From a virus: a DNA stretch of 21,480 nucleotides. Under the pieces are notes generated by a model that searched no databases, had not been told where the DNA came from, and saw only the letters and a program-made list of their open reading frames with translations. Positions 6,027 to 19,536 of this stretch are shown in pieces. Every line of letters begins with the position of its first letter. Positions within the stretch are counted from its first letter, which is position 1. The position numbers and the translations under genes are program-made. The stretch lies in UHGV virus genome UHGV-0072741. The stretch is one strand, 5' to 3'.

Positions 6027-6461
6027 TCATACCAGCGTAGCGCAGTTTTTGCGTAGCGCACTAATACTTTTTTCATCCCTTTGAATTTCGACCTCAGGAT
6101 CCATCTGAAGGCTCACACCCAGCATGCAGAGACACCCCTCAATGAATCCCTCTGCTACCTGCAACTGCTGGCGGATAAATCCTTCAGAACAGCGACGCCG
6201 CCGCCCTATCTCACGTTTGCTTAACCCGTAGACGTAGTACAGCATAATGACGTCCAGTTCCTCAGGCTTACGGACCTGCTGCAGCCGACAGACGCAAGCA
6301 TCGATAATCAGGCCATCGTCGTCACAGCAACTCAGCCTGCCAGGCGAGCTGCTGACTACCAGCCCTTTAAATCCCGCCGCTATTGGAGCCCAGCTCACTG
6401 TGGTGTTGCTATCGGCAGCCCAGCCACCCCAGCGCTCTAAAACCTGTTGAATATTACGCAT
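6027..6461 (-). CDS. Q: Late-gene antiterminator Q (phage antitermination protein Q family)
   Basis: 144 aa; MRNIQQVLERWGGWAADSN..SWAPIAAGFKGLV...CCDDDGLIID...YYVYGL matches the conserved pattern of Q-family antiterminators; located upstream of the lysis cassette. Confidence 0.85.
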   Translation of the reverse strand: MRNIQQVLERWGGWAADSNTTVSWAPIAAGFKGLVVSSSPGRLSCCDDDGLIIDACVCRLQQVRKPEELDVIMLYYVYGLSKREIGRRRRCSEGFIRQQLQVAEGFIEGCLCMLGVSLQMDPEVEIQRDEKSISALRKNCATLV

Positions 6462-6514
6462 AGCTCTGACCTCTACGTTTTGCTACGAAAAAATTTTCTG
6501 AGAACTACGTCTGT

Positions 6515-6534
6515 TTATCCGTGGGTGTGGATAA
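6515..6534. promoter_or_regulatory. Inverted pair of DnaA-box-like sequences
   Basis: tgtggataa at 6526..6534 is the exact reverse complement of the DnaA box consensus TTATCCACA; ttatccgtg at 6515..6523 is a 7/9 match on the other strand. Confidence 0.4.
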
Positions 6535-6591
6535 CGCAGTTCCGATTCGCATATTGCATGTATCAACATGCAAAAAGTTGCTAATTCGGAG

Positions 6592-6780
6592 TGGAACCAC
6601 CCGCCCCCACCTGGAACCACCTTTTCCTAACCTTTCCCTCAATCGACTTATATATATATATGGGGTTTCTAGTAGAAAGGCGGTTCCAGTGGTTCCAGTA
6701 GTTCCGACCCGCTTGCCACAAGGTCTGCAAGGTGGAACCACCTTCTCTTTTAGGTGGTTCCGCGTGGTTCCAGCGGTTCC
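6592..6780. repeat. Iteron array: about nine copies of GGTTCCA/TGGAACC flanking a (TA)n tract; candidate origin of replication
   Basis: TGGAACCA at 6592, 6612 and 6733; GGTTCC(A) at 6682, 6691, (6700), 6755, 6766 and 6775, at roughly one-helical-turn spacing; tatatatatata at 6649..6662. Lies between the primase stop and Q. Confidence 0.55.
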
Positions 6781-8936
6781 CAAACCTTGCATTTTTTCCC
6801 CCCAATTCGCCTTTGGGCACGCTTATACCCGCAATTTTGCAAAACATTACTAATTCGCATTTCTTCGCGTTTTCCGATGCGGTCAGGATTTAGCCCAATC
6901 GCATCACGCAAAACATCACTTGCGCGTAAAAATTCGCAATTCCGCGGAAGTTCATTAGTCATCAGGTCGGGCGTGTCGAGCCATTTCTCTACCGTTTCAA
7001 GCCAAGCATCCTTGATGGTGTACTGTTCATGGACACTCGCTGCCAGTTGTTCAGCCTCACGGAACTGGATACCCCCCAGACGCTGAAACACCTCACGAGC
7101 CTCAGCCCAAAGTAAAAGGAGATCTCTTTTTATCGCTTTCACGTCGACTTTCGACACTTCCACGGGGAGCCAGCGACGGTTACCAGTCTTGTCCGCAAGG
7201 AATTCGTCCTCATTGGTGGTACCAACGAACACCAGGCGACGAGGAAACTGGGTGGCGAACTCCCGGTATTTCGGGATCCAGTTTTCGTGAGTACGCGTCA
7301 CAAACGCTTTGATTGACTCCAGCTCTTTGGTATTAAGTCCGCGCAGTTCACCAATCTCTGCCACCAGCCGACCACGCATTTTTCGAGCGAGATCATCGTC
7401 TTTTTCGGCAAAAGAGATTTCAGTAAAAAACGCAGGATCAGGGCTCAGTGCCTCCACTCCGGAAGACTTACCGCAGCCCTGCGGACCAACGAGGATCGGC
7501 ACCATATCCGCTTTGATGCCTGGCTCCAGTACTCGCCCCGCCAACGCGGTCCACATGTACATAGACACCGCACGGGTATAAGGCGTGTCGGCGGTACCGA
7601 AGTGCGTATGGTAGAAACATTCGATGCGCGGCACGCCATCCCACTCCAGTCCGTTCAGCCAGGTGATCGCTGAATCAAATGGTTGTTCATCGGCTGCAAG
7701 TAACACCACATCGCGAATAAGTTCACGACCAACAGGTTTAAATCCCCGCTTTTCCATCGTGATGCGCAGGCGCGCATAATCCGCATCGGTGAATGCCCGC
7801 CATTGTCCGGATCCTGCAGGGGCAAACATGATTTCGTCGCGGAACTGGTCAAAGCGAATATCGATGTCCACAAAATCAGGGCGTACTACTGCTTTGGCTG
7901 CGTTGCTGATGGTTGCCTCGATACGCCCCCATTTATCACGCTCGAAAGCAGGCAGCGGTAAAGGTTCCGCCACTTCGGTGCTGGTCAGATCTTCGAAATC
8001 GTCGTTGCGGATCCCGATGGCATTAAGGAAATCTCCGTCATCACGATGCGCACAACTGGCATGCAGGCATTTAAAATGCCCCTGCTCAAAGCCCGCGGTT
8101 CCCGCAGGAAAATAAACTGTGCTTGTTGGATCGCCCCCGCTACTGTGGCCGTCTTCAAACGGACAGCGGATATATCGTTCACCATTTGCGCCATCCAGCA
8201 GCGTCCAGCCATTGGCATCAAGATATTCAGCTGTATCATCCGTCGCGCCGGGCGTGAATGCTGAACGGTCGCGCATCTTCGTGTTGCCCGCTTCGGTGGT
8301 TACCGACACAGGGAGTTGTTCAGCCAGGCGCTGCCACAGCGTTTCAAGCTGCTCACCTGTAATAGCCGGAGGTTCATCCGGCAAACCACCGTCCCATTCA
8401 ATACGCGCGCCGCTGCTGTGCGTACCGCAGGCAACGAACTGCTGCCCGTTCGCCAGCAACTCGATAATGCCCATATCCCCCGCTAGGCGATGGATACGCT
8501 TACGGAAATCACCATCAACGGCCAGCAGATACAGACACTTATTACTGTTTGCTCGCCAGCGTCGCGGCGGCAACTCACCCAGAAGTTGCACAAGCGTTTT
8601 GCGAATATCTGCCTGAATGTCTTCATCTTCGCTATCACAGTCCAGCGCCAGCCAGCCATGGCCTGTACGCACGCAGATGCCATAATCCGGTTCATTCGAC
8701 CAGCGGGCAAAATCATGCTCAGTAACAACATGCCCGGTCCATTGAGCAATACCGGTGACCTGGCGGTCCCGGTTATAGCGACTCGGCGTCTTACCCAACG
8801 CTTTCAGTTTACTATCAGGGGATATGGTCGCACTGGGGTTACATACAACTGGGAGAAGATGATCAGTTCTCCCCAATACCAGGTCGAAATGAAACCACTC
8901 ATCAGGCGTAGCTCCCCATGGTTTGCTATCGGACAT
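6750..8936 (-). CDS. Replication protein: primase (prim-pol-like N-terminus) fused to a D5/P4-alpha-like P-loop helicase
   Basis: 728 aa; Walker A GPQGCGKSS; cysteine/histidine-rich N-terminal region; follows the Cro-like gene in the early-right operon; the C-terminus overlaps the iteron array. Confidence 0.8.
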   Translation of the reverse strand: MSDSKPWGATPDEWFHFDLVLGRTDHLLPVVCNPSATISPDSKLKALGKTPSRYNRDRQVTGIAQWTGHVVTEHDFARWSNEPDYGICVRTGHGWLALDCDSEDEDIQADIRKTLVQLLGELPPRRWRANSNKCLYLLAVDGDFRKRIHRLAGDMGIIELLANGQQFVACGTHSSGARIEWDGGLPDEPPAITGEQLETLWQRLAEQLPVSVTTEAGNTKMRDRSAFTPGATDDTAEYLDANGWTLLDGANGERYIRCPFEDGHSSGGDPTSTVYFPAGTAGFEQGHFKCLHASCAHRDDGDFLNAIGIRNDDFEDLTSTEVAEPLPLPAFERDKWGRIEATISNAAKAVVRPDFVDIDIRFDQFRDEIMFAPAGSGQWRAFTDADYARLRITMEKRGFKPVGRELIRDVVLLAADEQPFDSAITWLNGLEWDGVPRIECFYHTHFGTADTPYTRAVSMYMWTALAGRVLEPGIKADMVPILVGPQGCGKSSGVEALSPDPAFFTEISFAEKDDDLARKMRGRLVAEIGELRGLNTKELESIKAFVTRTHENWIPKYREFATQFPRRLVFVGTTNEDEFLADKTGNRRWLPVEVSKVDVKAIKRDLLLLWAEAREVFQRLGGIQFREAEQLAASVHEQYTIKDAWLETVEKWLDTPDLMTNELPRNCEFLRASDVLRDAIGLNPDRIGKREEMRISNVLQNCGYKRAQRRIGGKKCKVWEPLEPRGTT

Positions 8937-8939
8937 GGG

Positions 8940-9152
8940 TTAAGCCTTTTTATCGTTTTGTGAGCCATACAACAGCCAATTAGGGTCGCAATCCAATGCT
9001 ATAGACATTTCAAGAAGATAACGTGGCCGAGCAATAACACCACTTTCAATTCTGTTTATTGCCTGCTGGCTCACTCCTGTGAGCTCAGCCAACGTAACTT
9101 GCGTCATTTTGAGTTCTTTACGTCGTTCTTTTACTCGGGTCGCTAAGGTCAT
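8940..9152 (-). CDS. Cro-like HTH transcriptional regulator (XRE family)
   Basis: Small HTH protein (MTQVTLAELTGVSQQAINRIE) divergent from the cI-like gene. Start placed at the ATG with GAGGTG upstream; the ORF-track start at 9170 has no RBS. Confidence 0.7.
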   Translation of the reverse strand: MTLATRVKERRKELKMTQVTLAELTGVSQQAINRIESGVIARPRYLLEMSIALDCDPNWLLYGSQNDKKA

Positions 9153-9272
9153 TGCTTTCACCTCATACAATTTTAGTGGTATTTAGCAACAACAAACGAG
9201 GTTTGTCAAATACAACAAAAATTGTTTTTAATGTGGGGATACACATTAATACAACCCAGAAGGACTAATCCC
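9153..9272. promoter_or_regulatory. Divergent promoter/operator region between the cro-like and cI-like genes (OR-like)
   Basis: Perfect palindromes ACAAAC-gag-GTTTGT (9192..9206) and AACAA-aaa-TTGTT (9214..9226) in a 120-bp AT-rich intergenic region between divergent HTH genes. Confidence 0.5.
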
Positions 9273-9896
9273 ATGTCTCTCGCAGCCCGTTTTAAAGCAC
9301 GTCGTTTGGAATTAGGAATGACTCAAGTGGAAGTAGCGAATTCTGCAGGGGTTAGCCAACAATCCATAGAATCCATCGAAAGTGGACGAACCAGAAAGCC
9401 ACGCAATCTTCTGGATCTGGCTAAGGCCTTGAAATGTAGCCCAGACTGGCTACTGAACGGTAAAAATATTATGCCTCTCACAGAGATAAGTACCAGACGC
9501 ATACCTATATTAAGCTACGTTCAGGCAGGAGAGCTTACAGAAGCAAGAGACATAACAGATCTGACAGGGGAATTTGAATATATTTTGGCAGACTCTGACA
9601 TTCCAGAAACATGCTTCGCATTACGTATTGATGGCGACAGCATGCAACCAGAGTTTAAAGAAGGAGACATTGTTATCATCGATCCTGATCTATGTCCTGC
9701 ACCAGGGGAGTTTGTTGTCGCCAAAAACGACGGTCACGAAGCTACATTTAAAAAATACCGTCCATTAGGAATCGGCATCGACGACTTTGAATTAATCCCC
9801 CTAAATCCTGATTACCCTATTTTTCGTAGTGCAGATATGAACTTACAGATCATAGGTGTAATGATCGAACACCGTATTTACCGCCGTAAACGTTAG
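9273..9896 (+). CDS. cI-like repressor: N-terminal HTH plus C-terminal S24 (LexA-like) self-cleaving peptidase domain
   Basis: HTH MTQVEVANSAGVSQQSIESIE; Ala-Gly cleavage site in YVQAGEL; catalytic Ser in GDSMQP and a downstream Lys. Start at the ATG preceded by AGGA; the ORF-track start at 9222 is a TTG. Confidence 0.85.
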   Translation: MSLAARFKARRLELGMTQVEVANSAGVSQQSIESIESGRTRKPRNLLDLAKALKCSPDWLLNGKNIMPLTEISTRRIPILSYVQAGELTEARDITDLTGEFEYILADSDIPETCFALRIDGDSMQPEFKEGDIVIIDPDLCPAPGEFVVAKNDGHEATFKKYRPLGIGIDDFELIPLNPDYPIFRSADMNLQIIGVMIEHRIYRRKR

Positions 9897-10484: not shown

Positions 10485-10667
10485 GTGCTCCCCGATATGA
10501 AAAAAGGAATACAACCGATGAAACCTGAATACCTCCATCGACTGACGGGGCGCGATGTTCTCCGTTATCGCCGTAAAAACTTCGATTTGATGACCGGTCT
10601 GGCCGTTGCCACTGCGCTCGGTCTGATCATCACTTTCATTCTCCTTGTAGCGAGGACCACAGTATGA
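10485..10667 (+). CDS. Small protein with a C-terminal transmembrane helix; start uncertain (GTG 10485, ATG 10497 or ATG 10518)
   Basis: C-terminal LAVATALGLIITFILLV hydrophobic segment; the ATG at 10518 has AGGA upstream; stop overlaps the start of the next ORF (ATGA coupling). Confidence 0.4.
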   Translation: MLPDMKKGIQPMKPEYLHRLTGRDVLRYRRKNFDLMTGLAVATALGLIITFILLVARTTV

Positions 10668-11566
10668 GTTTAGAAACCAGTCTCGAACTTAATAATCAAC
10701 TTCTGGCACAACATAATGCGCTGCTTGAACGTCTTATCCGCACAATGGCATCAGGTATTGTTATGCATCCTGACACGATTTCACGAGTGCAGGAATGTCG
10801 GGATACAGCAACTGAAACTGAAAATACGTCAGCGGCAATGACACTGGATGATCTGGAGTTCAGCGACGTTATCGCACTGGCTGGTTTCTACCCGGTAGCC
10901 ACCCCTATCACAGAAGACATGCTGCAACGTGCTGTTGCCTACCGTGATGCTGAAGGCGATAAACGAGTAGTTCAGATTGATGCTCTCGACAGCGCATTAC
11001 AGGGCGTCAAACGAGCCAGAGCGCTGCTTAAACCTGCTCTCCTGGACCTGTCCCGTAACATCCTTAAGTTCTGGGACGACCTGCCAACCATCGGCGAACG
11101 GCGTGCTTTTGCCGAGCAGCTACTTGATGCACCTGCAGATGGGCGTGATGAAGTTAAGCCGAAAAAGGCCAGTAACAAAGATGGAGAACGCACGGGGCCG
11201 TTTTACGTCAAAAATGTATCCGGCACAGCAGCCAGTGAACTCCACACCTTACGCAAGTTGAACGAGATGCTGAAAAAAGGCCATATCGAGATCAACCGTG
11301 TTGAGTACCTTCAGCTGCAGGAAGAATTTGCACGCAGAGACGCAGCAAATTCCAGCCAGAATAATGACGCCAAAGATGACCATACAATTGATTTCGCGGC
11401 ACTACGCAAACAAGCTGAAGGGTTGATCCTCCAGTTAGCAAAAGGGGGTTACCGGGCAGAAGCTATTGCAATTCTGGAAAAACAGGGAGCCAGGAAACTT
11501 GGTGAAGTAACGGATGAAAATCTCGCTGAAGTAATCACCCTGGCTGAAAAAGCACTGGAGGGTTAA
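10664..11566 (+). CDS. Hypothetical protein, 300 aa, no family recognised
   Basis: Long ORF translationally coupled to the preceding small membrane ORF and ending 3 nt before the DUF2800 gene; acidic, helical character. Confidence 0.6.
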
Positions 11567-11568
11567 TT

Positions 11569-12870
11569 ATGCCAGACGTTCATGCACGACTTTCCCCGTC
11601 ATCGGCGCATCGATGGATGCGCTGCCCAGGAAGTCTGGCGCTGGAGGCCACACAACCGGATAAAGAAACAACTTTTGCAATCGAGGGCACTGCAGCGCAC
11701 GCGCTTGCTGAAAAAGTTCTACGAAACAGGCAAAGCCACCCGGAACACTACGCCGGATGCAATGTTTCTATGTTTCTCGGCTCATACCCCCTTCGCGAAA
11801 ATCCTGATGATACATCTGGCCCACAGGTGGATGATGAAATGGTCGAAGCCGTTGGCCGGTATGTTGATACGGTCTGGACTCTTGCACAGAATAATGAACT
11901 ATTGGTTGAACAACGTGTTGATTTCTCACATATAACGGGTGTGGAAGAATCTTTCGGAACTGCCGACGGCATAATCATCGCGGGTAACGAATTACAAATC
12001 CACGACCTGAAATATGGCAAAGGCGTCCGCATTGATGCAGAACAAAATGAGCAACTACAACTGTATGCTCTGGGTGCTCTCGAACAATTCAGCATGCTGT
12101 ATGACTTTGAGACTGTAAGATTATTTATTCACCAGCCAAGGCTCAACCACGTTTCAGAATGGTCGTTAACAGTACAGGAACTTCAGTCTTTCGGTGAACG
12201 GGCACAGGAGGCCGCAACCAGCGCGATCCTTGTTCTCAATATTGCCGAATGCGAAGGCATTGAGACACTACCGCTGGAAAACTTCATACCTGGAGAAAAA
12301 CAGTGCCGCTTCTGTAAAGCAAAAGCTATTTGCACTGCCCAGAAAATGCAGCATTTACAAACAGCAGCCAGCGATTTTGAAGATCTGACAAAGCCTGTCA
12401 GCGAAATAATCACCAATGCCAGCGCACGTGTACCTCTGTTAACCATTGAGCAGCTTGCGGAGATCTATAGCCAGGCCGACTTTATTGAATCCTGGCTAAA
12501 GGCAGTACGGGACCGGGTTCACAATGAACTCAATGCCGGACATCCGGTACCGGGGTTTAAACTGGTAACAGGAAAACAAGGTAACCGGGCCTGGAGTGAT
12601 GAAGAGGCAGCTCGCGCACTTCTGAAGGACCAGTTCAGGTACAAAACTGAAGAAGTATTCGACTTTAAACTTATTAGTCCCACAAAAGCCGAAAAACTTA
12701 TCAAAAAGGCCAGTCCGCGCCGTTGGTCAAAAGTCGAGGCACTGATAACACGAGCTGATGGTAAACCCACCGTCGTTCCCGAGTCAGACCCACGCCCCGC
12801 ACTCAATATCAACCCTGTAAATGATTTCGACGACGTATCCGACGATACGCTAACCGCAGACCTCATCTGA
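11569..12870 (+). CDS. DUF2800-family PD-(D/E)XK (Cas4-like) nuclease
   Basis: N-terminal [15 protein letters not shown] motif typical of DUF2800; cysteine cluster [10 protein letters not shown]; GGAGGG RBS; adjacent to DUF2815 and PolA as in known phage replication modules. Confidence 0.75.
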
Positions 12871-12885
12871 TTTAAGGAAATACCC

Positions 12886-13434
12886 ATGAAACTGAAGCTG
12901 AACAATGTTCGTCTGGCCTTCCCGTCTCTGTTTGAAGCTAAAACTGTAAACGGCGAAGGCGATCCGCGTTTCTCCGCAGTATTTTTAATGTCTCCCAAAC
13001 ACCCGCAACTGGAAGAAATCCGTAAAGCTATGAAGCAGGTAGCGAAGGAAAAATGGGGGGAGAAGTGGGAGTCCATTTATAACCAGCTGGAGAAAAAACT
13101 CAATCTGTGCCTGCATGATGGTGATGAAAAAGCAGAGTATGAAGGCTTTCCCGGCAATTTCTTCCTGAATGCTGCTAACAAAGCGCGCCCAGCTGTTCTT
13201 GATCGCGATCGTTCGCCACTAATTCAGGCTGATGGACGTCCCTATGCAGGGTGCTATGTAAACGCCGTTATCGATATCTGGGCACAGGACAATAATTTCG
13301 GTAAACGCATTAATGCCTCACTCGGCGGAGTCCAGTTCCTGCGAGACGGCGATGCATTTGCTGGCGGCGGAGTGGCAAGCGCTGACGATTTCGACGATAT
13401 CAGCGAAGGTGCTGATGCTGAAGCACTAATTTAA
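12886..13434 (+). CDS. DUF2815-family protein (phage replication module, SSB-like)
   Basis: 182-aa ORF with AAGGA RBS directly after DUF2800; conserved DUF2800-DUF2815-PolA synteny. Confidence 0.7.
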   Translation: MKLKLNNVRLAFPSLFEAKTVNGEGDPRFSAVFLMSPKHPQLEEIRKAMKQVAKEKWGEKWESIYNQLEKKLNLCLHDGDEKAEYEGFPGNFFLNAANKARPAVLDRDRSPLIQADGRPYAGCYVNAVIDIWAQDNNFGKRINASLGGVQFLRDGDAFAGGGVASADDFDDISEGADAEALI

Positions 13435-13485
13435 AAATATTCATCCCCCAGCTACGTGCTGGGGTATCTCATGAGGGAAAGAATA

Positions 13486-13665
13486 ATGTCACAGCCCGTA
13501 TTAACTAATCACCTTAAAACTCAAATCATCAATAACGCACTTGAGAAAGCGGGTATCCCCAAACGTAAATCAGCACTACGAGCTGCTCGTGTTGAATGGG
13601 CCGAACGTGTTCGGCTTGCAGCTATCGGGGGCGTAGAGAAAGAAGCTGAAATATTAAAAAAATAG
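13486..13665 (+). CDS. Hypothetical small protein
   Basis: ORF beginning MSQPVLTNHLK with GAGGGA upstream; the ORF track extends it to 13456. Confidence 0.4.
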   Translation: MSQPVLTNHLKTQIINNALEKAGIPKRKSALRAARVEWAERVRLAAIGGVEKEAEILKK

Positions 13666-13733
13666 AAACACTGGTATCAAAATTCCCCGAAGCATTAAAA
13701 ACCGCCAATAATATTATCAGGAAAGAGTGTTAC

Positions 13734-14114
13734 ATGTGTCTGAATCTGGCAGGTTCTCGGGTTACCGTCTATTTCAACGGTAACTATCGAGGATATGAAT
13801 CAGGGTCACCAGACCATATTCACAAAATCGCGCCGGGGGAATTTACCCTTCTGGCAAATGACCCTCTAGTTACAGAGTTTTACGGGTTTGATGCACTTTA
13901 TGAGCAGATACAGAGCGATGAGTCAGACATTCGACAGAATGTCAGCGCTGCACTCAGTAAAGTGCGCACAGTTAAGCGCCTGCTGGAAGAGTGGCCTGAA
14001 GCTAAAGAACTTCTGCCAGCCGATGCACCATCTGCTCCGCTTCCGCCAGCTATACGACGCGAAACTCTCAACGAAATGATCGGCCTCCCTTCTGACGAAG
14101 GGGTAGATGCTTAA
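13734..14114 (+). CDS. Hypothetical protein, 126 aa
   Basis: ORF with AGGAAAGAG RBS; no recognised motif. Confidence 0.5.
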   Translation: MCLNLAGSRVTVYFNGNYRGYESGSPDHIHKIAPGEFTLLANDPLVTEFYGFDALYEQIQSDESDIRQNVSAALSKVRTVKRLLEEWPEAKELLPADAPSAPLPPAIRRETLNEMIGLPSDEGVDA

Positions 14115-14181
14115 TATTTCTTATAACAAAGGCTGGCTTAAGAAAATAGTTATCCAAACCAGCCTACCGCAATACTAAAAA

Positions 14182-14451
14182 TTAAAATTCATTGAATTTA
14201 AAAAGACATTTCCCTATTGGATTGCCATAGTCTCTACATACCGAAATGCTGTCCCATACAGGCTGAGCCAAACACCCAAGAAAGAACCCAATAAGCGCAA
14301 AAATTATAATTTTGGGAAGAACACGATCCTTAGGACCTTCTTCACGTTCGAGCCATGCGCCACCAGCCCGAACTATTCTCCCTAAAATATAAAGAATGGG
14401 GAAAGCAATAATACCTATCAATGAAAGTATTCCGATACCAAAGCTAAACAC
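14182..14451 (-). CDS. Small two-helix membrane protein (89 aa) on the opposite strand inside the plus-strand operon
   Basis: GTG start with a perfect AAGGAG 6 nt upstream; two hydrophobic helices (FGIGILSLIGIIAFPILYILG; IIIFALIGFFLGCLA) and a cysteine-containing C-terminus; sits in a local AT-rich island. Confidence 0.5.
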   Translation of the reverse strand: MFSFGIGILSLIGIIAFPILYILGRIVRAGGAWLEREEGPKDRVLPKIIIFALIGFFLGCLAQPVWDSISVCRDYGNPIGKCLFKFNEF

Positions 14452-14507
14452 CGCCGTCTCCTTGTTTATTTACACCTACATAACCATATATCACACAAGG
14501 TTATTTT

Positions 14508-16571
14508 ATGTCCAATATACTATGGGGTGACCTAGAAACCTATTGCGAAATCCCTATTACGAACGGTACCCATGCGTATGCCGAAGGCGTTGAAGTGATG
14601 CTTTTCGCATGGGCTATCAACGACGGGCCAGTAAATGTGTGGGATATCACTGCCGGTGGTGGTATTCCACACGGCTTATACGAAGCAATCGCAGACCCTG
14701 AAACCCTGCTTTATTTCCATAACTCTCACTTCGACCGCACCGTTCTGCGTTATGCAATGCCGCGACTGGCACCGCCAGTCGAACGTTGGCGCGACACGAT
14801 GGTGCAGGCGCTGGCGCACGGTCTCCCGGGGTCTCTGGGGGAACTCTGCGAAGTACTAGGCGTCCCGCAAGACAAAGCGAAGGACAAAGAAGGTAAAGCG
14901 CTGATCCAGCTGTTCTGTAAGCCACGCCCGAAAAACAGCAAACTGCGTCGGGCCACCAGTAAAACCCACCCGGAAGAATGGCGGCGCTTTGTTGCTTACG
15001 CCGGACTGGATATCGAGGCAATGCGCGAAGTCTATAAACGTCTGCCGAAGTGGAATTATCAGGGGACAGAACTGGCGCTCTGGCATCGTGATCAGCAGAT
15101 CAATGACCGGGGCGTCTGCATGGACATGCAACTCGCACGCGCTGCGATCGAAGCGGTAGACCAGGAACAAAAGCGCCTGGCAAAGCGTACACAGGAAATG
15201 ACTGATGGCGAAGTGCAGGCAGCCACACAACGAGACGCGTTGATTAAGCACATTGTTGAATCCTACGGTGTGGAGCTACCAGACATGCAACGCAGTACTC
15301 TGGAACGTCGTATTGCCGACCCCGATTTACCATCTGCCGTGAAAGAACTGCTGGCTATCCGACTGCAGGCCAGTACTACCAGCACCAGTAAATACAAGGC
15401 ACTGATGAAAGGCGTAAGCCACGACGGGCGCTTACGCGGTACGCTACAGTTCTGCGGGGCGTCACGTACCGGTCGTTGGGCCGGACGGCTATTCCAGCCC
15501 CAGAATCTTCCCCGCCCTTCACTAAAACAGGAACAAATAGACGAAGGCATCGAAGCACTGAAAGCCGGATGTGCAGACCTGCTGTTTGACAATATCATGG
15601 AACTAACCAGTTCAGCGTTACGTGGCTGCATTATCGCGCCAACAGGCAAAAAACTGGTGGTAAGTGACTTGTCGAACATTGAAGGCCGTATGCTGGCATG
15701 GCTGGCAGGAGAAGAATGGAAACTGAATGCATTCAGAGAGTACGACGCCGGAACGGGTTCGGACTTATATAAACTGGCGTATGCAAAAGCTTTCGATATT
15801 ACACCAGATGATGTTGATAAACACATGCGTCAGATCGGTAAAGTCATGGAACTCGGTCTGGGTTATGGTGGTGGTGTGTCGGCCTTCATCACTTTTGCAC
15901 TGGTTTACGGTCTCGATCTCGACGAGCTGGCGAACGCCGCACTACCAAACATTCCCCGCGATGTTATCCGCGAGGCGAAAAGCTGGTACGACGAATCGGT
16001 TAAACGCAAGTCAACCTACGGGCTTTCTGAACGGGTATTTATCGCCTGCGACTCACTTAAACGTCTCTGGCGCCGGGCGCATCCCGCGACCTGTGATTTC
16101 TGGTACGAACTGGAGCGCACCGTCCGCACTGCAATCGCCACACCGCAAAAAACATTGTATTGCGGTTATCTTAAAATCCGCCGCGATGGCGCGTGGCTGC
16201 GCATACAGCTACCATCCGGACGCGCTGTATGCTACCCGTCTCCGGTTATCGAAAAAGGGAATATCACCTACATGGGGGTTAACTCTTATTCGCGTAAATG
16301 GCAACGACTCAAAACCTACGGCGGAAAGCTGGTGGAGAACGTTACCCAGGCGGCCGCCCGCGACGTTCTGGCCGGAAACATGCCGCTTATCGAAGATGCC
16401 GGTTACAGCATTGTGCTGACGGTACACGACGAGGTGATAACCGAAGCACCTGACACAGAAGATTTCAACGATAAAGCGCTTTCCGCGCTTCTCTCCAATA
16501 ACCCCGAATGGGCGCCCGATATCCCACTGAACGCTGGCGGTTTTGAGGCGTACCACTACCGTAAGGATTAA
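14508..16571 (+). CDS. Family A DNA polymerase (PolA-type, with N-terminal exonuclease-like region)
   Basis: Family-A motifs: DLSNIEGR (motif A-like), [16 protein letters not shown] (motif B), VHDEV (motif C); 687 aa. Confidence 0.9.
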
Positions 16572-16576
16572 CTCCT

Positions 16577-16792
16577 ATGTCATTAAAATACTGGGACAAT
16601 CCACTTTATTACAGGGCTGCAAGGGAGGCTTTGCGACTTGAACAATCCGGCGAATATGACCGGGCAGCGAAGGTCTGGGCAAAAGCCAACCGCGAATCAC
16701 ATCACGAACTGAATCAGGAATGGAGTGAACGCAGATCTGATTTTTGCCTGATGCAGAATATGCGTGAAAAGCGTAAGGCGGTCGAAGAATGA
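16577..16792 (+). CDS. Small hypothetical protein (71 aa); possibly an ANR-like small regulator
   Basis: ORF with AAGGA RBS right after polA; W/R/C-containing helical pattern loosely reminiscent of the ANR family. Family assignment is a guess. Confidence 0.4.
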   Translation: MSLKYWDNPLYYRAAREALRLEQSGEYDRAAKVWAKANRESHHELNQEWSERRSDFCLMQNMREKRKAVEE

Positions 16793-17088
16793 TCGTTTAC
16801 GTTGCCGGGCCGATGAGCGGTTACGAGCAATTTAACCGCCCGGCTTTTCATTCCGCAGCAAAGAGGCTAACGGACAAGGGATATGTTGTGCTTAACCCCG
16901 CAACTTTACCCAATGGTTTGACACAGGCTCAGTATATGGACATCTGCCTCGCAATGCTTCGCTGTGCCGATACGATTTATATGCTCAAAGAGTGGGAGTA
17001 CTCTGCTGGCGCACGTGCAGAACACGCGTTGGCAGAGAAACTGGAATTGAATGTGCTTTTTGAAGAGTGGGATTCAGATGGCCTATGA
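16789..17088 (+). CDS. DUF4406-family protein (nucleoside 2-deoxyribosyltransferase-like)
   Basis: N-terminal MIVYVAGPMSGYEQFNRPAF matches the conserved DUF4406 start pattern; overlaps its neighbours by 4 and 11 nt. Confidence 0.6.
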   Translation: MIVYVAGPMSGYEQFNRPAFHSAAKRLTDKGYVVLNPATLPNGLTQAQYMDICLAMLRCADTIYMLKEWEYSAGARAEHALAEKLELNVLFEEWDSDGL

Positions 17089-17347
17089 ACGTGAAAGCCT
17101 TATCGAAAAGCACCTCGTCGCTGAAGTGAAAAAAGCTGGCGGAGTGGCCTTTAAGTTTGTATCTCCCGGTCACCGCTCGGTACCAGATCGCATTGTCCTG
17201 CTACCCGGTGGTCGTATCGTTTTCGTTGAATGTAAATCCCCCGGCAAACCACCACGACCTGACCAGTTGCGCACACATAAACGTCTGCGAAAGCTGGGCT
17301 TTACCGTGGTGGTACTGGATAGCAAAGATCTGGAGGAGATTATTTAA
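17078..17347 (+). CDS. VRR-NUC domain nuclease
   Basis: PDRIVLLPGGRIVFVECKSPGKPPRPDQ contains the D...E.K nuclease motif; ATG at 17078 overlaps the DUF4406 stop; the ORF track starts earlier at 17051. Confidence 0.7.
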   Translation: MAYERESLIEKHLVAEVKKAGGVAFKFVSPGHRSVPDRIVLLPGGRIVFVECKSPGKPPRPDQLRTHKRLRKLGFTVVVLDSKDLEEII

Positions 17348-18099
17348 AAAGATAGATGCCAGGTATCATCAAAACAATGCCTATAAAAGTTTATTTTTGC
17401 TTCATCTTTAACTCTTCTAAACTTCATTTTGGCATCATATGGAATCAGCACAAAATCTTTGTCGTATTCATCACAACGACCCAGAATGAAACCGTTACTA
17501 CTTTTAGAAAGTAGTATAAATGGAGCATCAGTTGTAGTTGAGAGCTCATTCTCACCGTTGTCAAATTCCGGATAAGAGACTTTATCGGATGATGAATTAA
17601 CGAATCCTGCAAGAAATGATAGCAGCAGTAGACATGTTGTCCCAATGATAGCGGAAGAAAATTTACCTATCAGTATAGATTTAAAAACATCGCTCCAAAC
17701 TACAATCATGATTATGAACACAACAACAATAATACCAAGACACACAAGGAAAATCGCTTTACCACTATAAATCAATAAGTACAGTTCTTTAGGGTTGAAA
17801 ACATTAAAGGTATAAACGCCTAAGATCCATATTGAGTAAACACCAGTAATAAGAAACCATATGAGCGACGTTCTTTTTGACAAGCCAAACCAAAAAACAC
17901 AAAGAAGCGGTAAAAATATCGTCAATATTTTAAATGAAGTTATAAGAATAATATTGATATTTATATCAATAAACTCTACAGGGTATTCAAAATAATAACT
18001 CTCCCCAAGCAAATAAGCATATGTCAAAATATAAAGCAATGCCGAAATAGTAGATATTGATGACAAATCCTTGAGGAATTCTCTAGCCGTAATTTTCAT
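17344..18099 (-). CDS. Multi-pass membrane protein of unknown function (251 aa); AT-rich moron and candidate accessory/defence gene
   Basis: About five predicted transmembrane helices followed by an ~80-aa soluble C-terminal domain; opposite strand to all neighbours; strongly AT-rich (by eye roughly 30% GC versus about 50% around it); has its own promoter. Confidence 0.65.
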   Translation of the reverse strand: MKITAREFLKDLSSISTISALLYILTYAYLLGESYYFEYPVEFIDININIILITSFKILTIFLPLLCVFWFGLSKRTSLIWFLITGVYSIWILGVYTFNVFNPKELYLLIYSGKAIFLVCLGIIVVVFIIMIVVWSDVFKSILIGKFSSAIIGTTCLLLLSFLAGFVNSSSDKVSYPEFDNGENELSTTTDAPFILLSKSSNGFILGRCDEYDKDFVLIPYDAKMKFRRVKDEAKINFYRHCFDDTWHLSF

Positions 18100-18130
18100 T
18101 ATATTTACTCAAAGTTATGTTAATGAGAAT

Positions 18131-18158
18131 ATTATATGTTCATCCAACACAGTTTCAA
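18131..18158 (-). promoter_or_regulatory. Near-consensus sigma70 promoter for the membrane-protein moron, overlapping the SNF2 helicase start codon
   Basis: Minus-strand reading TTGAAA-16 nt-TATAAT, about 31 nt upstream of the moron ATG; the -10 hexamer (forward 18131..18136) abuts the helicase ATG at 18136. Confidence 0.45.
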
Positions 18159-19536
18159 ACCTAGACTTTACCAAAATCTCATTATCAACCACGAGACCAA
18201 CACTCTGCGCGGCAATATCTGGGCAGGTATGGGAATGGGAAAAACCGTAGCGACACTCACCACGCTGGAAGATCTCTTCATGGCAGGGGCAGAAACACGC
18301 CCAGCGCTGGTCCTCGCGCCGCTGCGCGTGGCTGCCAGCACATGGCCGGATGAAGCACTGAAGTGGGGGCATTTGCGCAATATCGAGGTGCAGCCAATTA
18401 TTGGTAATGCCAAAGCGCGCTCTATGGCGCTGGCGAACAGCAACGCAAGCGTGTTCACAATCAACTACGATAACCTTGTCTGGCTGGTTGAGGAATTGGG
18501 AGAACGATGGCCGTTCGGTACTGTCATTCCAGATGAAAGCACCCGGCTAAAATCCTTCCGGCTGCGAGGTGGTGGTAAGCGCGCGGCGGCGCTGGGCAAA
18601 GTGGCGCATAAGTATGTCCGGCGCTGGATAAATCTCACCGGTACGCCAGCACCGAACGGCCTGGTAGATTTGTGGGGACAATCGTGGTTTGTGGACCAAG
18701 GGCAACGTCTCGGGCGCACTTACGGCGCGTTTACCTCACGCTGGTTCAACTCGATACAGTTTCCGGGACAGAGCTGGACTAAACTGGAACCTTTTGCTCA
18801 CTCACAGGGTGAAATACAGCGAGCATTAGCCGATGTGACCCTCTCGCTGGATGCGGCCGACTGGTTCGATATCAAAGACCCCATCCATAACGTAATCCGC
18901 GTGGATATGCCCCCGAAGGCCCGTCAGCAGTATCGTGAAATGGAAAAGGAAATGTTCCTCGAGCTGAATGGCGAAGGCATCGAAGCACCGAACGCCGCGG
19001 CAAAGACACTGAAGTGTCTTCAAATCGCTAGTGGCGCAGTATACACAGACGACACCGGAAGTTGGTCAGAAGTGCATGACACCAAACTACAGGCGCTGGA
19101 CAGCATACTGACCGAAGCAGCTGGCGTACCTGTGCTGGTTGCTTATCACTGGAAACACGATCTTGAACGCTTGCTTAAAGCATTCCCTCGCGGTCGTCAC
19201 CTCGACCAGGATCCACAGACACTGCGCGACTGGAATTCCGGAAAGATTCCTGTTCTCTTTGCACACCCAGCCAGCGCGGGCCACGGCCTGAACATGCAGG
19301 ACGGCGGAAATATACTGGTATTTTTCTCACACTGGTGGGACCTGGAGCAATATCAGCAAATTCTTGAACGTATCGGCCCCACCAGGCAGATACAGGCCGG
19401 ACACAATCGTCCGGTATTTATTCACCACATTATTGCTGCCGACACTATGGACGAAATGGTGATGGAGCGGCGCAACTCAAAACGAACAGTGCAGGACATC
19501 CTGCTCGATGCCATGAAAAAGAGAGGTATAGCATGA
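18136..19536 (+). CDS. SNF2-family (DEAD/DEAH-like) helicase
   Basis: Walker A GMGMGKTVATLT; DExx box VIPDESTRLK; 466 aa; tail of the replication module. Confidence 0.85.
   Translation: MFIQHSFKPRLYQNLIINHETNTLRGNIWAGMGMGKTVATLTTLEDLFMAGAETRPALVLAPLRVAASTWPDEALKWGHLRNIEVQPIIGNAKARSMALANSNASVFTINYDNLVWLVEELGERWPFGTVIPDESTRLKSFRLRGGGKRAAALGKVAHKYVRRWINLTGTPAPNGLVDLWGQSWFVDQGQRLGRTYGAFTSRWFNSIQFPGQSWTKLEPFAHSQGEIQRALADVTLSLDAADWFDIKDPIHNVIRVDMPPKARQQYREMEKEMFLELNGEGIEAPNAAAKTLKCLQIASGAVYTDDTGSWSEVHDTKLQALDSILTEAAGVPVLVAYHWKHDLERLLKAFPRGRHLDQDPQTLRDWNSGKIPVLFAHPASAGHGLNMQDGGNILVFFSHWWDLEQYQQILERIGPTRQIQAGHNRPVFIHHIIAADTMDEMVMERRNSKRTVQDILLDAMKKRGIA

Follow-up and report, generated by a model that had tools for sequence, protein, structure and literature searches.

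In the window (the whole stretch of DNA that was analysed, 21,480 nucleotides), a gene encoding a protein of 728 amino acids (aa) occupies positions 6750-8936 on the minus strand. The gene of the antiterminator Q (6027-6461; Pfam Phage_antitermQ, E 1e-50) is located on the same strand. An array of short repeats lies upstream of Q at 6592-6781 and consists of nine copies of TGGAACCAC, with zero to two mismatches each, and one decayed copy, placed around a (TA)6 tract. The original prediction had proposed an iteron-type replication origin at this locus and had named the C-terminal domain of the adjacent primase-helicase as its binder. Both proposals are supported here by homology, the predicted fold, a conserved layout and protein-DNA covariation.

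The repeats are arranged in four groups. Iterons 1-3 are direct repeats on the coding (minus) strand and read GGGAACCGC (6754-6762, one mismatch), TGGAACCAC (6764-6772, exact) and CGGAACCAC (6773-6781, two mismatches). Iteron 4 (6733-6741, plus strand) is exact and inverted relative to them. Iterons 5-7 (6680-6688, one mismatch; 6689-6697, exact; 6698-6706, two mismatches; minus strand) stand head-to-tail with a 9-bp period and point towards a central block, a position that is kept in all relatives. On the far side of this block, iterons 8-10 have the opposite orientation (plus strand); those at 6592-6600 and 6612-6620 are exact, while the copy at about 6601-6611 is decayed here and intact in other specificity classes. 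The spacing of tandem iterons is 9-10 bp, and the distance from 6592 to 6612 is 20 bp. The estimate of about nine repeats in both orientations at a spacing of about 10 bp was accurate, but the repeat unit is the 9-bp TGGAACCAC and not the 7-bp GGTTCCA first described. The iterons extend from 31 nt before the stop codon of the primase-helicase gene (6750-6752) to 158 nt past it. The array had been placed between the primase gene and Q, which is correct except for iterons 1-3 (6754-6781), since these lie within the final 10 codons of the open reading frame (ORF) for the primase-helicase.

The concentration of the motif at this site is unlikely to be accidental. The exact 9-mer TGGAACCAC occurs five times in the 21.5-kb window, each time inside the array. 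Eight of the 13 GGTTCC hexamers of the window fall within 6590-6785, where 0.046 are expected (Poisson P = 4.8e-16), and the other five lie in the remaining 21.3 kb. A k-mer cluster scan of the whole 21.5 kb revealed no comparable repeat cluster elsewhere.

The 728-aa protein is a fusion of three parts, namely a primase of the prim-pol type, an SF3 helicase of the VapE type and, at the C-terminus, a winged helix. The N-terminal AEP prim-pol, with a zinc-binding segment, covers approximately residues 1-300 and the helicase approximately residues 330-640. The protein matched Pfam VapE-like_dom (E 2e-60) and, below threshold, DUF5906; it also matched the PHROG DNA helicase and primase families, and PF09250 Prim-Pol is recorded in its homologues. 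Its sole solved relative is the SaPI1 Rep (PDB 7PDS). A phmmer comparison with this Rep1 (chain A) gave E 8e-34 over residues 393-657, and Foldseek matched the whole 457-aa Rep1 chain (E 6e-18), as well as the prim-pols of pRN1 and NrS-1. The C-terminus is predicted to fold as a winged helix (residues 644-721; codons at 6774-7007, minus strand) with helices H1 (644-653), H2 (672-680) and H3 (689-701, REEMRISNVLQNC) and wing strands at residues 704-711 and 714-721. The second wing strand, KKCKVWEP, is encoded by 6774-6797 (minus strand).

The central block (6621-6679) is 59 bp long with about 58% A+T and reads TACTAGAAACCCCAT-(AT)n-AAGTCG..GGGAAAGGTTAG on the coding strand. It includes the originally described (TA)6 tract, a 13-nt (TA)6T run (TATATATATATAT) at 6649-6661. 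The 20-mers over this tract belong to the least stable 0.1% of the window and form the least stable duplex of the region. The block is conserved across specificity classes while the flanking iterons change, and we regard it as the candidate melting site. In a right-hand border element (6554-6588), 20 nt of the H3-helix codons are repeated (6569-6588), and this copy overlaps a perfect 8+8 palindrome, TTGCATGT-atca-ACATGCAA (6554-6573). A consensus scan detected no promoter-like or terminator-like site on the minus strand from the primase-helicase gene to Q, and Q is probably reached through read-through transcription that crosses the origin. No Rfam match was found in 6300-7000 at E <= 1.

In 32 related loci (the 30 loci of the covariation set, and E. 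coli IAI1 and phage YeP4, which were added separately), the orthologous gene is followed directly on its 3' side by the same layout. These extend from E. coli to Burkholderiales and include Trabulsiella, Pluralibacter, Pectobacterium, Xenorhabdus, Photorhabdus, Yersinia phage YeP4 and Gilliamella/Orbaceae. The positions of the iterons are constant across the loci; their core varies by lineage and is homogeneous inside each locus. Variation of the core follows the wing hairpin and is not matched by the protein backbone, the immunity region, Q or TerS. Each of seven wing classes goes consistently with one of seven iteron cores, among backbones that are 63% to 98% identical. The partial correlation between iteron and wing given the backbone (Mantel r = 0.67, reached by 0 of 5000 permutations) could in part represent co-inheritance of one recombination block and not functional coupling, because the wing codons and the iterons are adjacent and partly overlap; the correlation between iteron and backbone given the wing was -0.17.

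Closely related prophages illustrate this relationship. Four E. coli prophages (L002, L003, L004 and L008) match the window at 96-100% identity over VapE, cro and cI, but at only 46-84% in about 6540-6815. Every iteron in them has changed from GGAACC to GTACC, and the protein is altered from residue 715 onward only. The swapped cassette is approximately 250 bp long and comprises the wing codons and all of the iterons; the rest of the compared 3.5 kb is 96-100% identical. The second wing strand is the only protein segment that differs in these otherwise identical prophages with another iteron core, which points to this strand as the specificity determinant. Individual residues also follow the core. 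The third residue past a conserved GK is Arg where the variable half of the core has C (GTAC, GTCC, AGAC) and Lys where it has A or T (GGAA, GTTA, GTAA/GTAT), and the wing strand ends in V-W with CCAC, in I-F with CCAAC, and in V-F or V-Y with CAACC. The covariation suggests that each initiator is specific for its cognate iterons.

The closest known system is the Rep-ori module of the staphylococcal pathogenicity islands (SaPI) and other phage-inducible chromosomal islands (PICI). SaPI Reps bind iterons immediately 3' of rep, where an AT-rich centre is flanked by at least two iterons per side in opposite orientation (Ubeda et al. 2007 and 2012, summarised in Qiao et al. 2022, PMC9371898). The SaPI1 Rep (7PDS) is an initiator helicase that loads itself and binds the iterons through its winged helix. 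A SaPI ori has six to twelve short iterons, and each initiator goes with its own cognate iterons. The element in the window shares with SaPI a homologous VapE-type SF3 initiator with a C-terminal winged helix, the position of the putative origin immediately 3' of the initiator gene, and opposed iteron sets, 6680-6706 (minus strand) facing 6592-6620 (plus strand) across 6621-6679. The fusion of primase and Rep also has a counterpart in PriRep5 of SaPI5. There are also clear differences. SaPI are helper-dependent satellites in Staphylococcus aureus, whereas the present element is a complete prophage of a Gram-negative host with structural genes, polymerase and SSB of its own. The iteron has 9 bp here and 5-6 bp in SaPI, three iterons overlap the end of the ORF, and differences in specificity are located in the wing hairpin. 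The AT-rich regions of SaPI origins are roughly 80 bp long, whereas the presumed melting centre here is short and lies in a strongly conserved core (GGGAAAGGTTAG ... ACCCCAT(AT)n).

Gram-negative PICI, such as EcCICFT073 and others, have the same pri-rep-ori organisation, and the pri-ori fragment of EcCICFT073 was tested for plasmid maintenance with pri or ori deletions as controls (Fillol-Salom et al. 2018, PMC6092414). They share the host group (E. coli) with the prophage, and the likeness is one of organisation. The module is PICI-like, but the element itself is not a PICI: genes for TerS, TerL, portal, head, neck and tail proteins, holin, lysozyme and Q are present both in the window and in IAI1, and the related YeP4 is an isolated phage. 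By homology and layout, the gene and its array are a SaPI/PICI-type Rep-ori module inside a complete lambdoid prophage. A literature search found no published account of the present origin.

Taken with these likenesses, the arrangement makes it very likely that 6592-6781 is the replication origin of a lambdoid-organised E. coli prophage and that it works in a SaPI/PICI-like manner. Initiator binding, melting, self-loading and the start of replication would all take place within this interval. After induction, the cro-side early promoter would transcribe the gene for the prim-pol/SF3-helicase/winged-helix protein (6750-8936), and the C-terminal winged helix would bind the 9-bp iterons. The variable wing hairpin may read the variable 5' half of the iteron, with the conserved CCAC/CAAC half probably left to the recognition helix, which hardly varies. 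The opposed iteron sets on both sides of the (TA)n core would position two helicase rings; the core would melt and the helicases would load themselves without a separate loader. Primers would then be supplied by the prim-pol domain of the initiator itself and extended by the phage family-A polymerase with SSB from the leftward operon. The phage does encode PolA and SSB, along with a nuclease and an SNF2 helicase. No member of the lambda O or P families was found among the scanned ORFs, and the replication gene beside cro is that of the VapE protein.

The original prediction had also likened the locus to satellite phage P4, which serves as an analogue but not as a relative. The alpha protein of P4 unites a primase, an SF3-class helicase and a C-terminal origin-binding domain in one polypeptide, as does the 728-aa protein, and it binds short iterons (TGTTCACC) in both orientations, with crr directly 3' of its gene. 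However, the domains of alpha are Zn_Ribbon_Prim, Toprim_3, D5_N, DUF5906 and Pox_D5, so that a Toprim primase with D5_N and Pox_D5 stands against an AEP prim-pol with VapE, and BLASTP of the 728-aa protein against alpha gave nothing significant (best E = 0.7). P4 also needs two separate iteron regions in cis, ori and crr, whereas a single cluster is present here.

This last difference bears on the alternative that the cluster is a crr-like cis enhancer and that the true origin is a second iteron region elsewhere, as in P4, where crr lies immediately 3' of alpha and ori about 4.5 kb away (NC_001609 annotation). The window covers just a part (21.5 kb) of the prophage, as this alternative would require. 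We nevertheless consider it improbable. No second cluster of cognate iterons is present in the 21.5-kb window or in 24.5-kb stretches of the prophages of IAI1 and TUM1880, and the complete 35-kb genome of YeP4 has a single cluster, in which seven of eight AGACAACC copies are directly 3' of the primase gene. Moreover, the homologue of the 728-aa protein is SaPI Rep, which serves a single origin, and not P4 alpha.

It is still less probable that the array is mainly regulatory, acting as a roadblock or an autoregulator that times Q and the late genes without origin function. The array does lie on the sole transcription path from the early operon to Q, no promoter-like or terminator-like site was found there on the minus strand, and the initiator gene shares its 3' end with three iterons. 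Many relatives, however, have a gene other than Q at this place and nevertheless keep the array with its layout and (TA)n core unaltered. A conserved core that melts easily, set between convergent iteron groups, is the architecture of an origin and not of an operator. Regulation by the array could be an extra role, but it leaves the core unexplained.

A host-DnaA-dependent theta origin of the plasmid type, in which a DnaA box and the iterons cooperate, is highly improbable. An exact box, TTATCCACA, is found in the Q leader at 6526-6534 (minus strand; letters TGTGGATAA), 58 bp from the last iteron; the window has no other exact box, and about 0.16 are expected by arithmetic in 21.5 kb on both strands. 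The original prediction had paired this box with an inverted partner. The exact box was located as described, but the partner TTATCCGTG (6515-6523) departs from the DnaA consensus at 3 of 9 positions and is therefore not a credible second box. Nor is the pair a conserved component of the origin, a role for which it was rejected. Of 31 related loci, only 5 have an exact box, so the box is outside the conserved module; the 26 that lack it show the same origin layout, and the relaxed pattern TTWTNCACA is matched in 7 of the 31. Even in close E. coli relatives, two positions of the box have changed, giving CGTGAATAA. The box sits in the Q-leader segment, which is replaced where another gene follows, and is probably no part of the origin module. 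In addition, the helicase-initiator, primase, polymerase and SSB are all encoded by the phage itself.

A pac array for the small terminase or a set of cI/Cro operators is scarcely credible: short repeated motifs are often recognised by small terminases and repressors, and the array is about 2.3 kb from terS, but both were rejected, since TerS (WP_000162796.1) is the same in all three E. coli iteron classes, and the cI-cro region is the same in the window and L002 although their iterons differ, with GGTTCC absent from the cI-cro intergenic region. Two further candidate binders were rejected. Q types assort independently of the iteron class, and no hidden small ORF is conserved in the cassette, two classes having no ORF of at least 40 aa.

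The proposed origin can be compared with that of lambda, with which the prophage shares the order cI, cro, replication, Q, lysis and terminase. Both origins lie in the rightward early operon and are crossed by early transcription. The lambda ori is inside the O gene, whereas the present one is at the end of the initiator gene and after it. Lambda has the initiator O and recruits the DnaB helicase of the host with the loader P; the helicase here would be self-loading by analogy with SaPI. The origin of the streptococcal phage Sfi21 is downstream of its primase gene.

These results point to the place where a prophage family, which has relatives in many Enterobacterales, Orbaceae and Burkholderiales, is likely to start its replication. 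An origin design described as exclusive to PICI satellites appears to be used in complete temperate phages as well, and its occurrence there bears on the source of satellite replication modules. The known mechanism would be extended to a new class of elements, and current understanding is not overturned. The near-isogenic cassette swaps are a natural experiment, in which an initiator and about ten sites seem to shift specificity together, and they might supply synthetic biology with orthogonal pairs of origin and initiator.

More tentatively, this phage family could contain a natural library made up of at least ten initiator-origin pairs, all orthogonal to one another and swapped as a cassette of approximately 250 bp, with specificity read by the wing hairpin and not by the recognition helix. 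The cassette may comprise the second wing strand and all nine or ten iterons between the two copies of a 20-nt direct repeat, the left copy of which encodes the recognition helix. If such a library exists, five or six residues could reprogram origin specificity, and its diversification would plausibly have been driven by the avoidance of cross-talk among co-resident prophages and satellites. The prophage family was present in 152 of 5,426 complete E. coli genomes (about 3%).

The window comes from an E. coli prophage of lambdoid organisation and is 98% identical to a prophage in strain IAI1; of 5,426 complete E. coli genomes, 152 contain the locus. Going left from the immunity region on the minus strand, a cro-like HTH gene (8940-9170) comes first, then the gene of a 728-aa VapE-domain protein (6750-8936; hereafter the initiator), a non-coding stretch of 288 bp (6462-6749) and the Q antiterminator gene (6027-6461). 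Beyond Q lie holin, lysozyme, an Rz-like gene, TerS, TerL and portal, in that order. The plus strand carries a cI-like S24 repressor gene (9222-9896) and an operon (10664-19536), which encodes a DUF2800 PD-(D/E)XK nuclease (11569-12870), an Enc34-type SSB (12886-13434), a family-A DNA polymerase (14508-16571) and an SNF2 helicase (18136-19536) and is followed by the integrase. Lambda O and P are absent from the window genes. Such possession of its own replisome parts is unusual among lambdoid-organised E. coli prophages, which usually use host enzymes via O and P.

The candidate replication origin lies at the 3' end of the initiator gene. Nine matches to TGGAACCAC with zero to two mismatches were counted at 6592-6781 (three plus-strand, six minus-strand), together with a decayed tenth copy at about 6601-6611, in agreement with the roughly nine iterons of the original prediction. 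All five exact 9-mers in the window fall inside the array, 8 of the 13 GGTTCC hexamers lie within 196 bp (0.046 expected; Poisson P = 4.8e-16), and a k-mer cluster scan of the whole window gave no second cluster comparable to it. On the coding strand, three direct copies overlap the final ten codons of the ORF and its stop codon, and one inverted copy follows. After about 26 bp come three head-to-tail copies with a 9-bp period, a 59-bp central block (6621-6679) and three inverted copies, of which the decayed one is in the middle. The central block reads GGGAAAGGTTAG ... AAGTCG ... (AT)n ATGGGGTT on the coding strand, and its (TA) tract TATATATATATAT (6649-6661) is among the least stable 0.1% of window 20-mers. 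The core TACTA..AACCCCAT(AT)nAAGTCG..GGGAAAGGTTAG is nearly invariant in Enterobacterales across specificity classes and still recognisable in Gilliamella and Burkholderiales. This near-invariance points to a conserved partner (a host factor, or the initiator through its helicase or primase part) or to a structural constraint beyond AT-richness. No Rfam family matched the origin region, and no promoter-like or terminator-like site was found on the coding strand from the initiator gene to Q.

We aligned the origin region with those of seven diverged E. coli relatives. The repeat positions were equal in all seven, and three core classes were distinguished: GGAACC in the window, GTACC in TUM1880, 21KM1392, STEC383 and M-17, and GTTACC in Sx181, XH993 and A34. 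The (TA)n central block and the Q-proximal 100 bp were kept in all aligned loci. In a sliding identity profile, the GTACC prophages were 96-100% identical to the window over the whole initiator gene, cro and cI, and three of them were also near-identical through Q; identity fell to 46-84% only at about 6540-6815. The initiators of the window and the GTACC class share 97-98% identity and differ only from residue 715 (GKKCKVWEPLEPRGTT versus GKMTRIFEAVSQPVPTSK), in the second strand (714-721) of the wing, the hairpin that follows the recognition helix. The second wing strand and all of the iterons switch jointly, in what is effectively a natural cassette swap in the near-isogenic background of the compared 3.5 kb. 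Residues 715-718 are encoded before the first iteron is reached, so the overlap of iterons and ORF does not account for their change.

Other candidate binders of the iterons were rejected. The window and IAI1 have one iteron class in common but unlike accessory cargo, and Q types assort independently of iteron class. One TerS protein accession is common to prophages of all three E. coli classes. The cI-cro intergenic region, where the motif is absent, differs by one base between the window and a GTACC-class prophage (L002). No hidden ORF is conserved in the cassette.

The comparison was extended to 22 loci from a one-genome-per-species scan, nine from exact-protein look-ups and one from Yersinia phage YeP4, an isolated phage. 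Wherever the 3' end of a locus was complete, the window's layout recurred past the stop codon, with lineage-specific cores: GGAACCAC, GTACCAAC, GTTACCAC, TAGACCACC, TAGACAACC, GTCCCAAC, GTAACCAC/GTATCCAC, GTAACAACC, GCCACC, GTCACCAC, GGAACA and TTTCTACACT, plus others. The backbones are 63-98% identical, and the pairing of wing and core was consistent. The wing GKKCK[VL]WE goes with TGGAACCAC (four loci), GK[MV][TV]RIFE with TGTACCAAC (eight), GKLMKVW with TGTTACCAC (four), GKQIRVW with TAGACCACC (two), GKQQR[VI]F with TAGACAACC (three, YeP4 among them), GKKMRIFE with TGTCCCAAC (one) and GKVLKVW with both TGTAACCAC and TGTATCCAC (two). Among 31 loci (the window and 30 relatives), iteron distance correlated with wing distance at r = 0.68 but with backbone distance at r = 0.22; the partial Mantel r of 0.67 was reached by none of 5000 permutations. 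Both the recognition helix and the iteron's 3' half (CCAC, CAAC) are almost invariant among classes, which suggests that helix and wing divide the reading of the iteron between them.

In Citrobacter and a metagenomic relative (L039 and L040), both of the GKVLKVW class, the iteron variants GTAACCAC and GTATCCAC, one base apart, both occur at matching positions about 10-250 nt past the stop codon, which suggests tolerated degeneracy or position-specific affinity tuning. In the temperate phage YeP4 (MK733262.1, 17178-17360), whose record carries no origin annotation, seven AGACAACC iterons surround a TATATA core behind the gene of a 'DNA primase' that ends GKQQRIFTAS.

Pfam detected only the VapE-like domain (residues 427-639) in the initiator, PF09250 Prim-Pol is recorded in close homologues, and there are matches to PHROG primase and helicase families. 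By sequence, SaPI1 Rep1 bound to DNA (7PDS, E 8e-34) is its only relative of known structure. An AlphaFold2 model (mean pLDDT 73) matched the entire 457-residue chain of 7PDS in Foldseek (E 6e-18), and its N-terminus resembles the pRN1 and NrS-1 prim-pols.

The SaPI Reps belong to the SF3 helicases, load themselves and start replication through iteron recognition by their C-terminal winged helix (Qiao et al. 2022, PMC9371898). The SaPI origin has six to twelve iterons directly downstream of the rep ORF, at least two of them on each side of an AT-rich middle in opposite directions (PMC9371898). E. coli PICIs are reported to have an origin of this organisation on the 3' side of the replication-initiation gene, and a pri-ori fragment was assayed for plasmid maintenance (Fillol-Salom et al. 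2018, PMC6092414). The candidate origin agrees with the SaPI/PICI description on each feature. Mechanism and architecture are already known in these elements; one point that goes beyond the descriptions consulted is a clean natural series of putative specificity cassettes, their protein part limited to the wing hairpin. Streptococcus thermophilus phages have origins just downstream of VirE-type primase genes, which makes the candidate origin less surprising.

The original prediction had drawn an analogy to P4, which holds for the union of primase, helicase and origin binder in a single chain. However, P4 alpha (Zn-ribbon, Toprim, D5_N, DUF5906 and Pox_D5 domains) has no significant similarity to the initiator (best E 0.7). 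In the P4 genome record, crr lies directly 3' of alpha and ori 4.5 kb off, whereas the window, a 24.5-kb stretch from each of two relatives and the complete YeP4 genome contain one iteron cluster apiece; in YeP4, seven of eight copies come immediately after the primase gene. This makes P4 a functional analogue, outside the family of this module.

[quoted passage not shown] The rings would self-load, the prim-pol domain would prime, and the phage polymerase and SSB would then take over. Ori-lambda is activated by PR transcription. Early transcription heading to Q would cross the candidate origin and could activate it, or bound initiator could impede this transcription.

The predicted pair of DnaA boxes was reduced to one. 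The exact box TGTGGATAA (6526-6534) is the single exact one in the window, but its inverted partner has three mismatches. An exact box occurs in only 5 of 31 loci, namely the window and four near-identical Q-linked relatives; at its position the GTTACC E. coli class has CGTGAATAA and Citrobacter a ACTCACACC-type sequence, and the box is lost wherever the downstream gene is other than Q. Judged from this distribution, the box appears to be part of the Q leader and not of the origin module. It may have an auxiliary host-specific role in E. coli, for which we found no support.

A 20-nt direct repeat (left 6838-6857, right 6569-6588; 17 of 20 positions alike) flanks the variable cassette. Codons of the recognition helix (R-I-S-N-V-L-Q) make up the left copy; the right one comes after the last iteron and overlaps a semi-conserved TTGCA-N10-TGCAA palindrome. 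The repeat is also present in loci L002, L005-L008, L015 and L039 and missing from about a dozen. In L015, a distant locus from Orbaceae, the two copies have diverged jointly and again agree at 17/20, which none of 500 shuffles reached. The repeat may have been left behind by cassette exchange or promote it (as homology arms), or it may be one more site bound by a protein. Just past the last iteron lies a perfect 8+8 palindrome, TTGCATGT-atca-ACATGCAA (6554-6573). The TTGCA-N10-TGCAA element stands at the equivalent place in most relatives irrespective of the downstream gene, for example as TTGCAGGTAGCGATATGCAA in L010-L012 and as a 9+9 palindrome in Gilliamella (L017). The palindrome may serve as an operator or may mark the border of the origin.

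Two cargo islands (about 13434-14780 and 16584-18169) vary between prophages that are otherwise about 97% identical. They hold an Nmad5 domain protein (13734-14114), DUF4406 (16789-17088) and a minus-strand 251-aa ORF (17344-18099) in the window, and TIR-domain, ANR-family and nuclease genes in IAI1 and TUM1880, the latter additionally with SIR2 and DUF6338. The islands are probably anti-phage defence hotspots.
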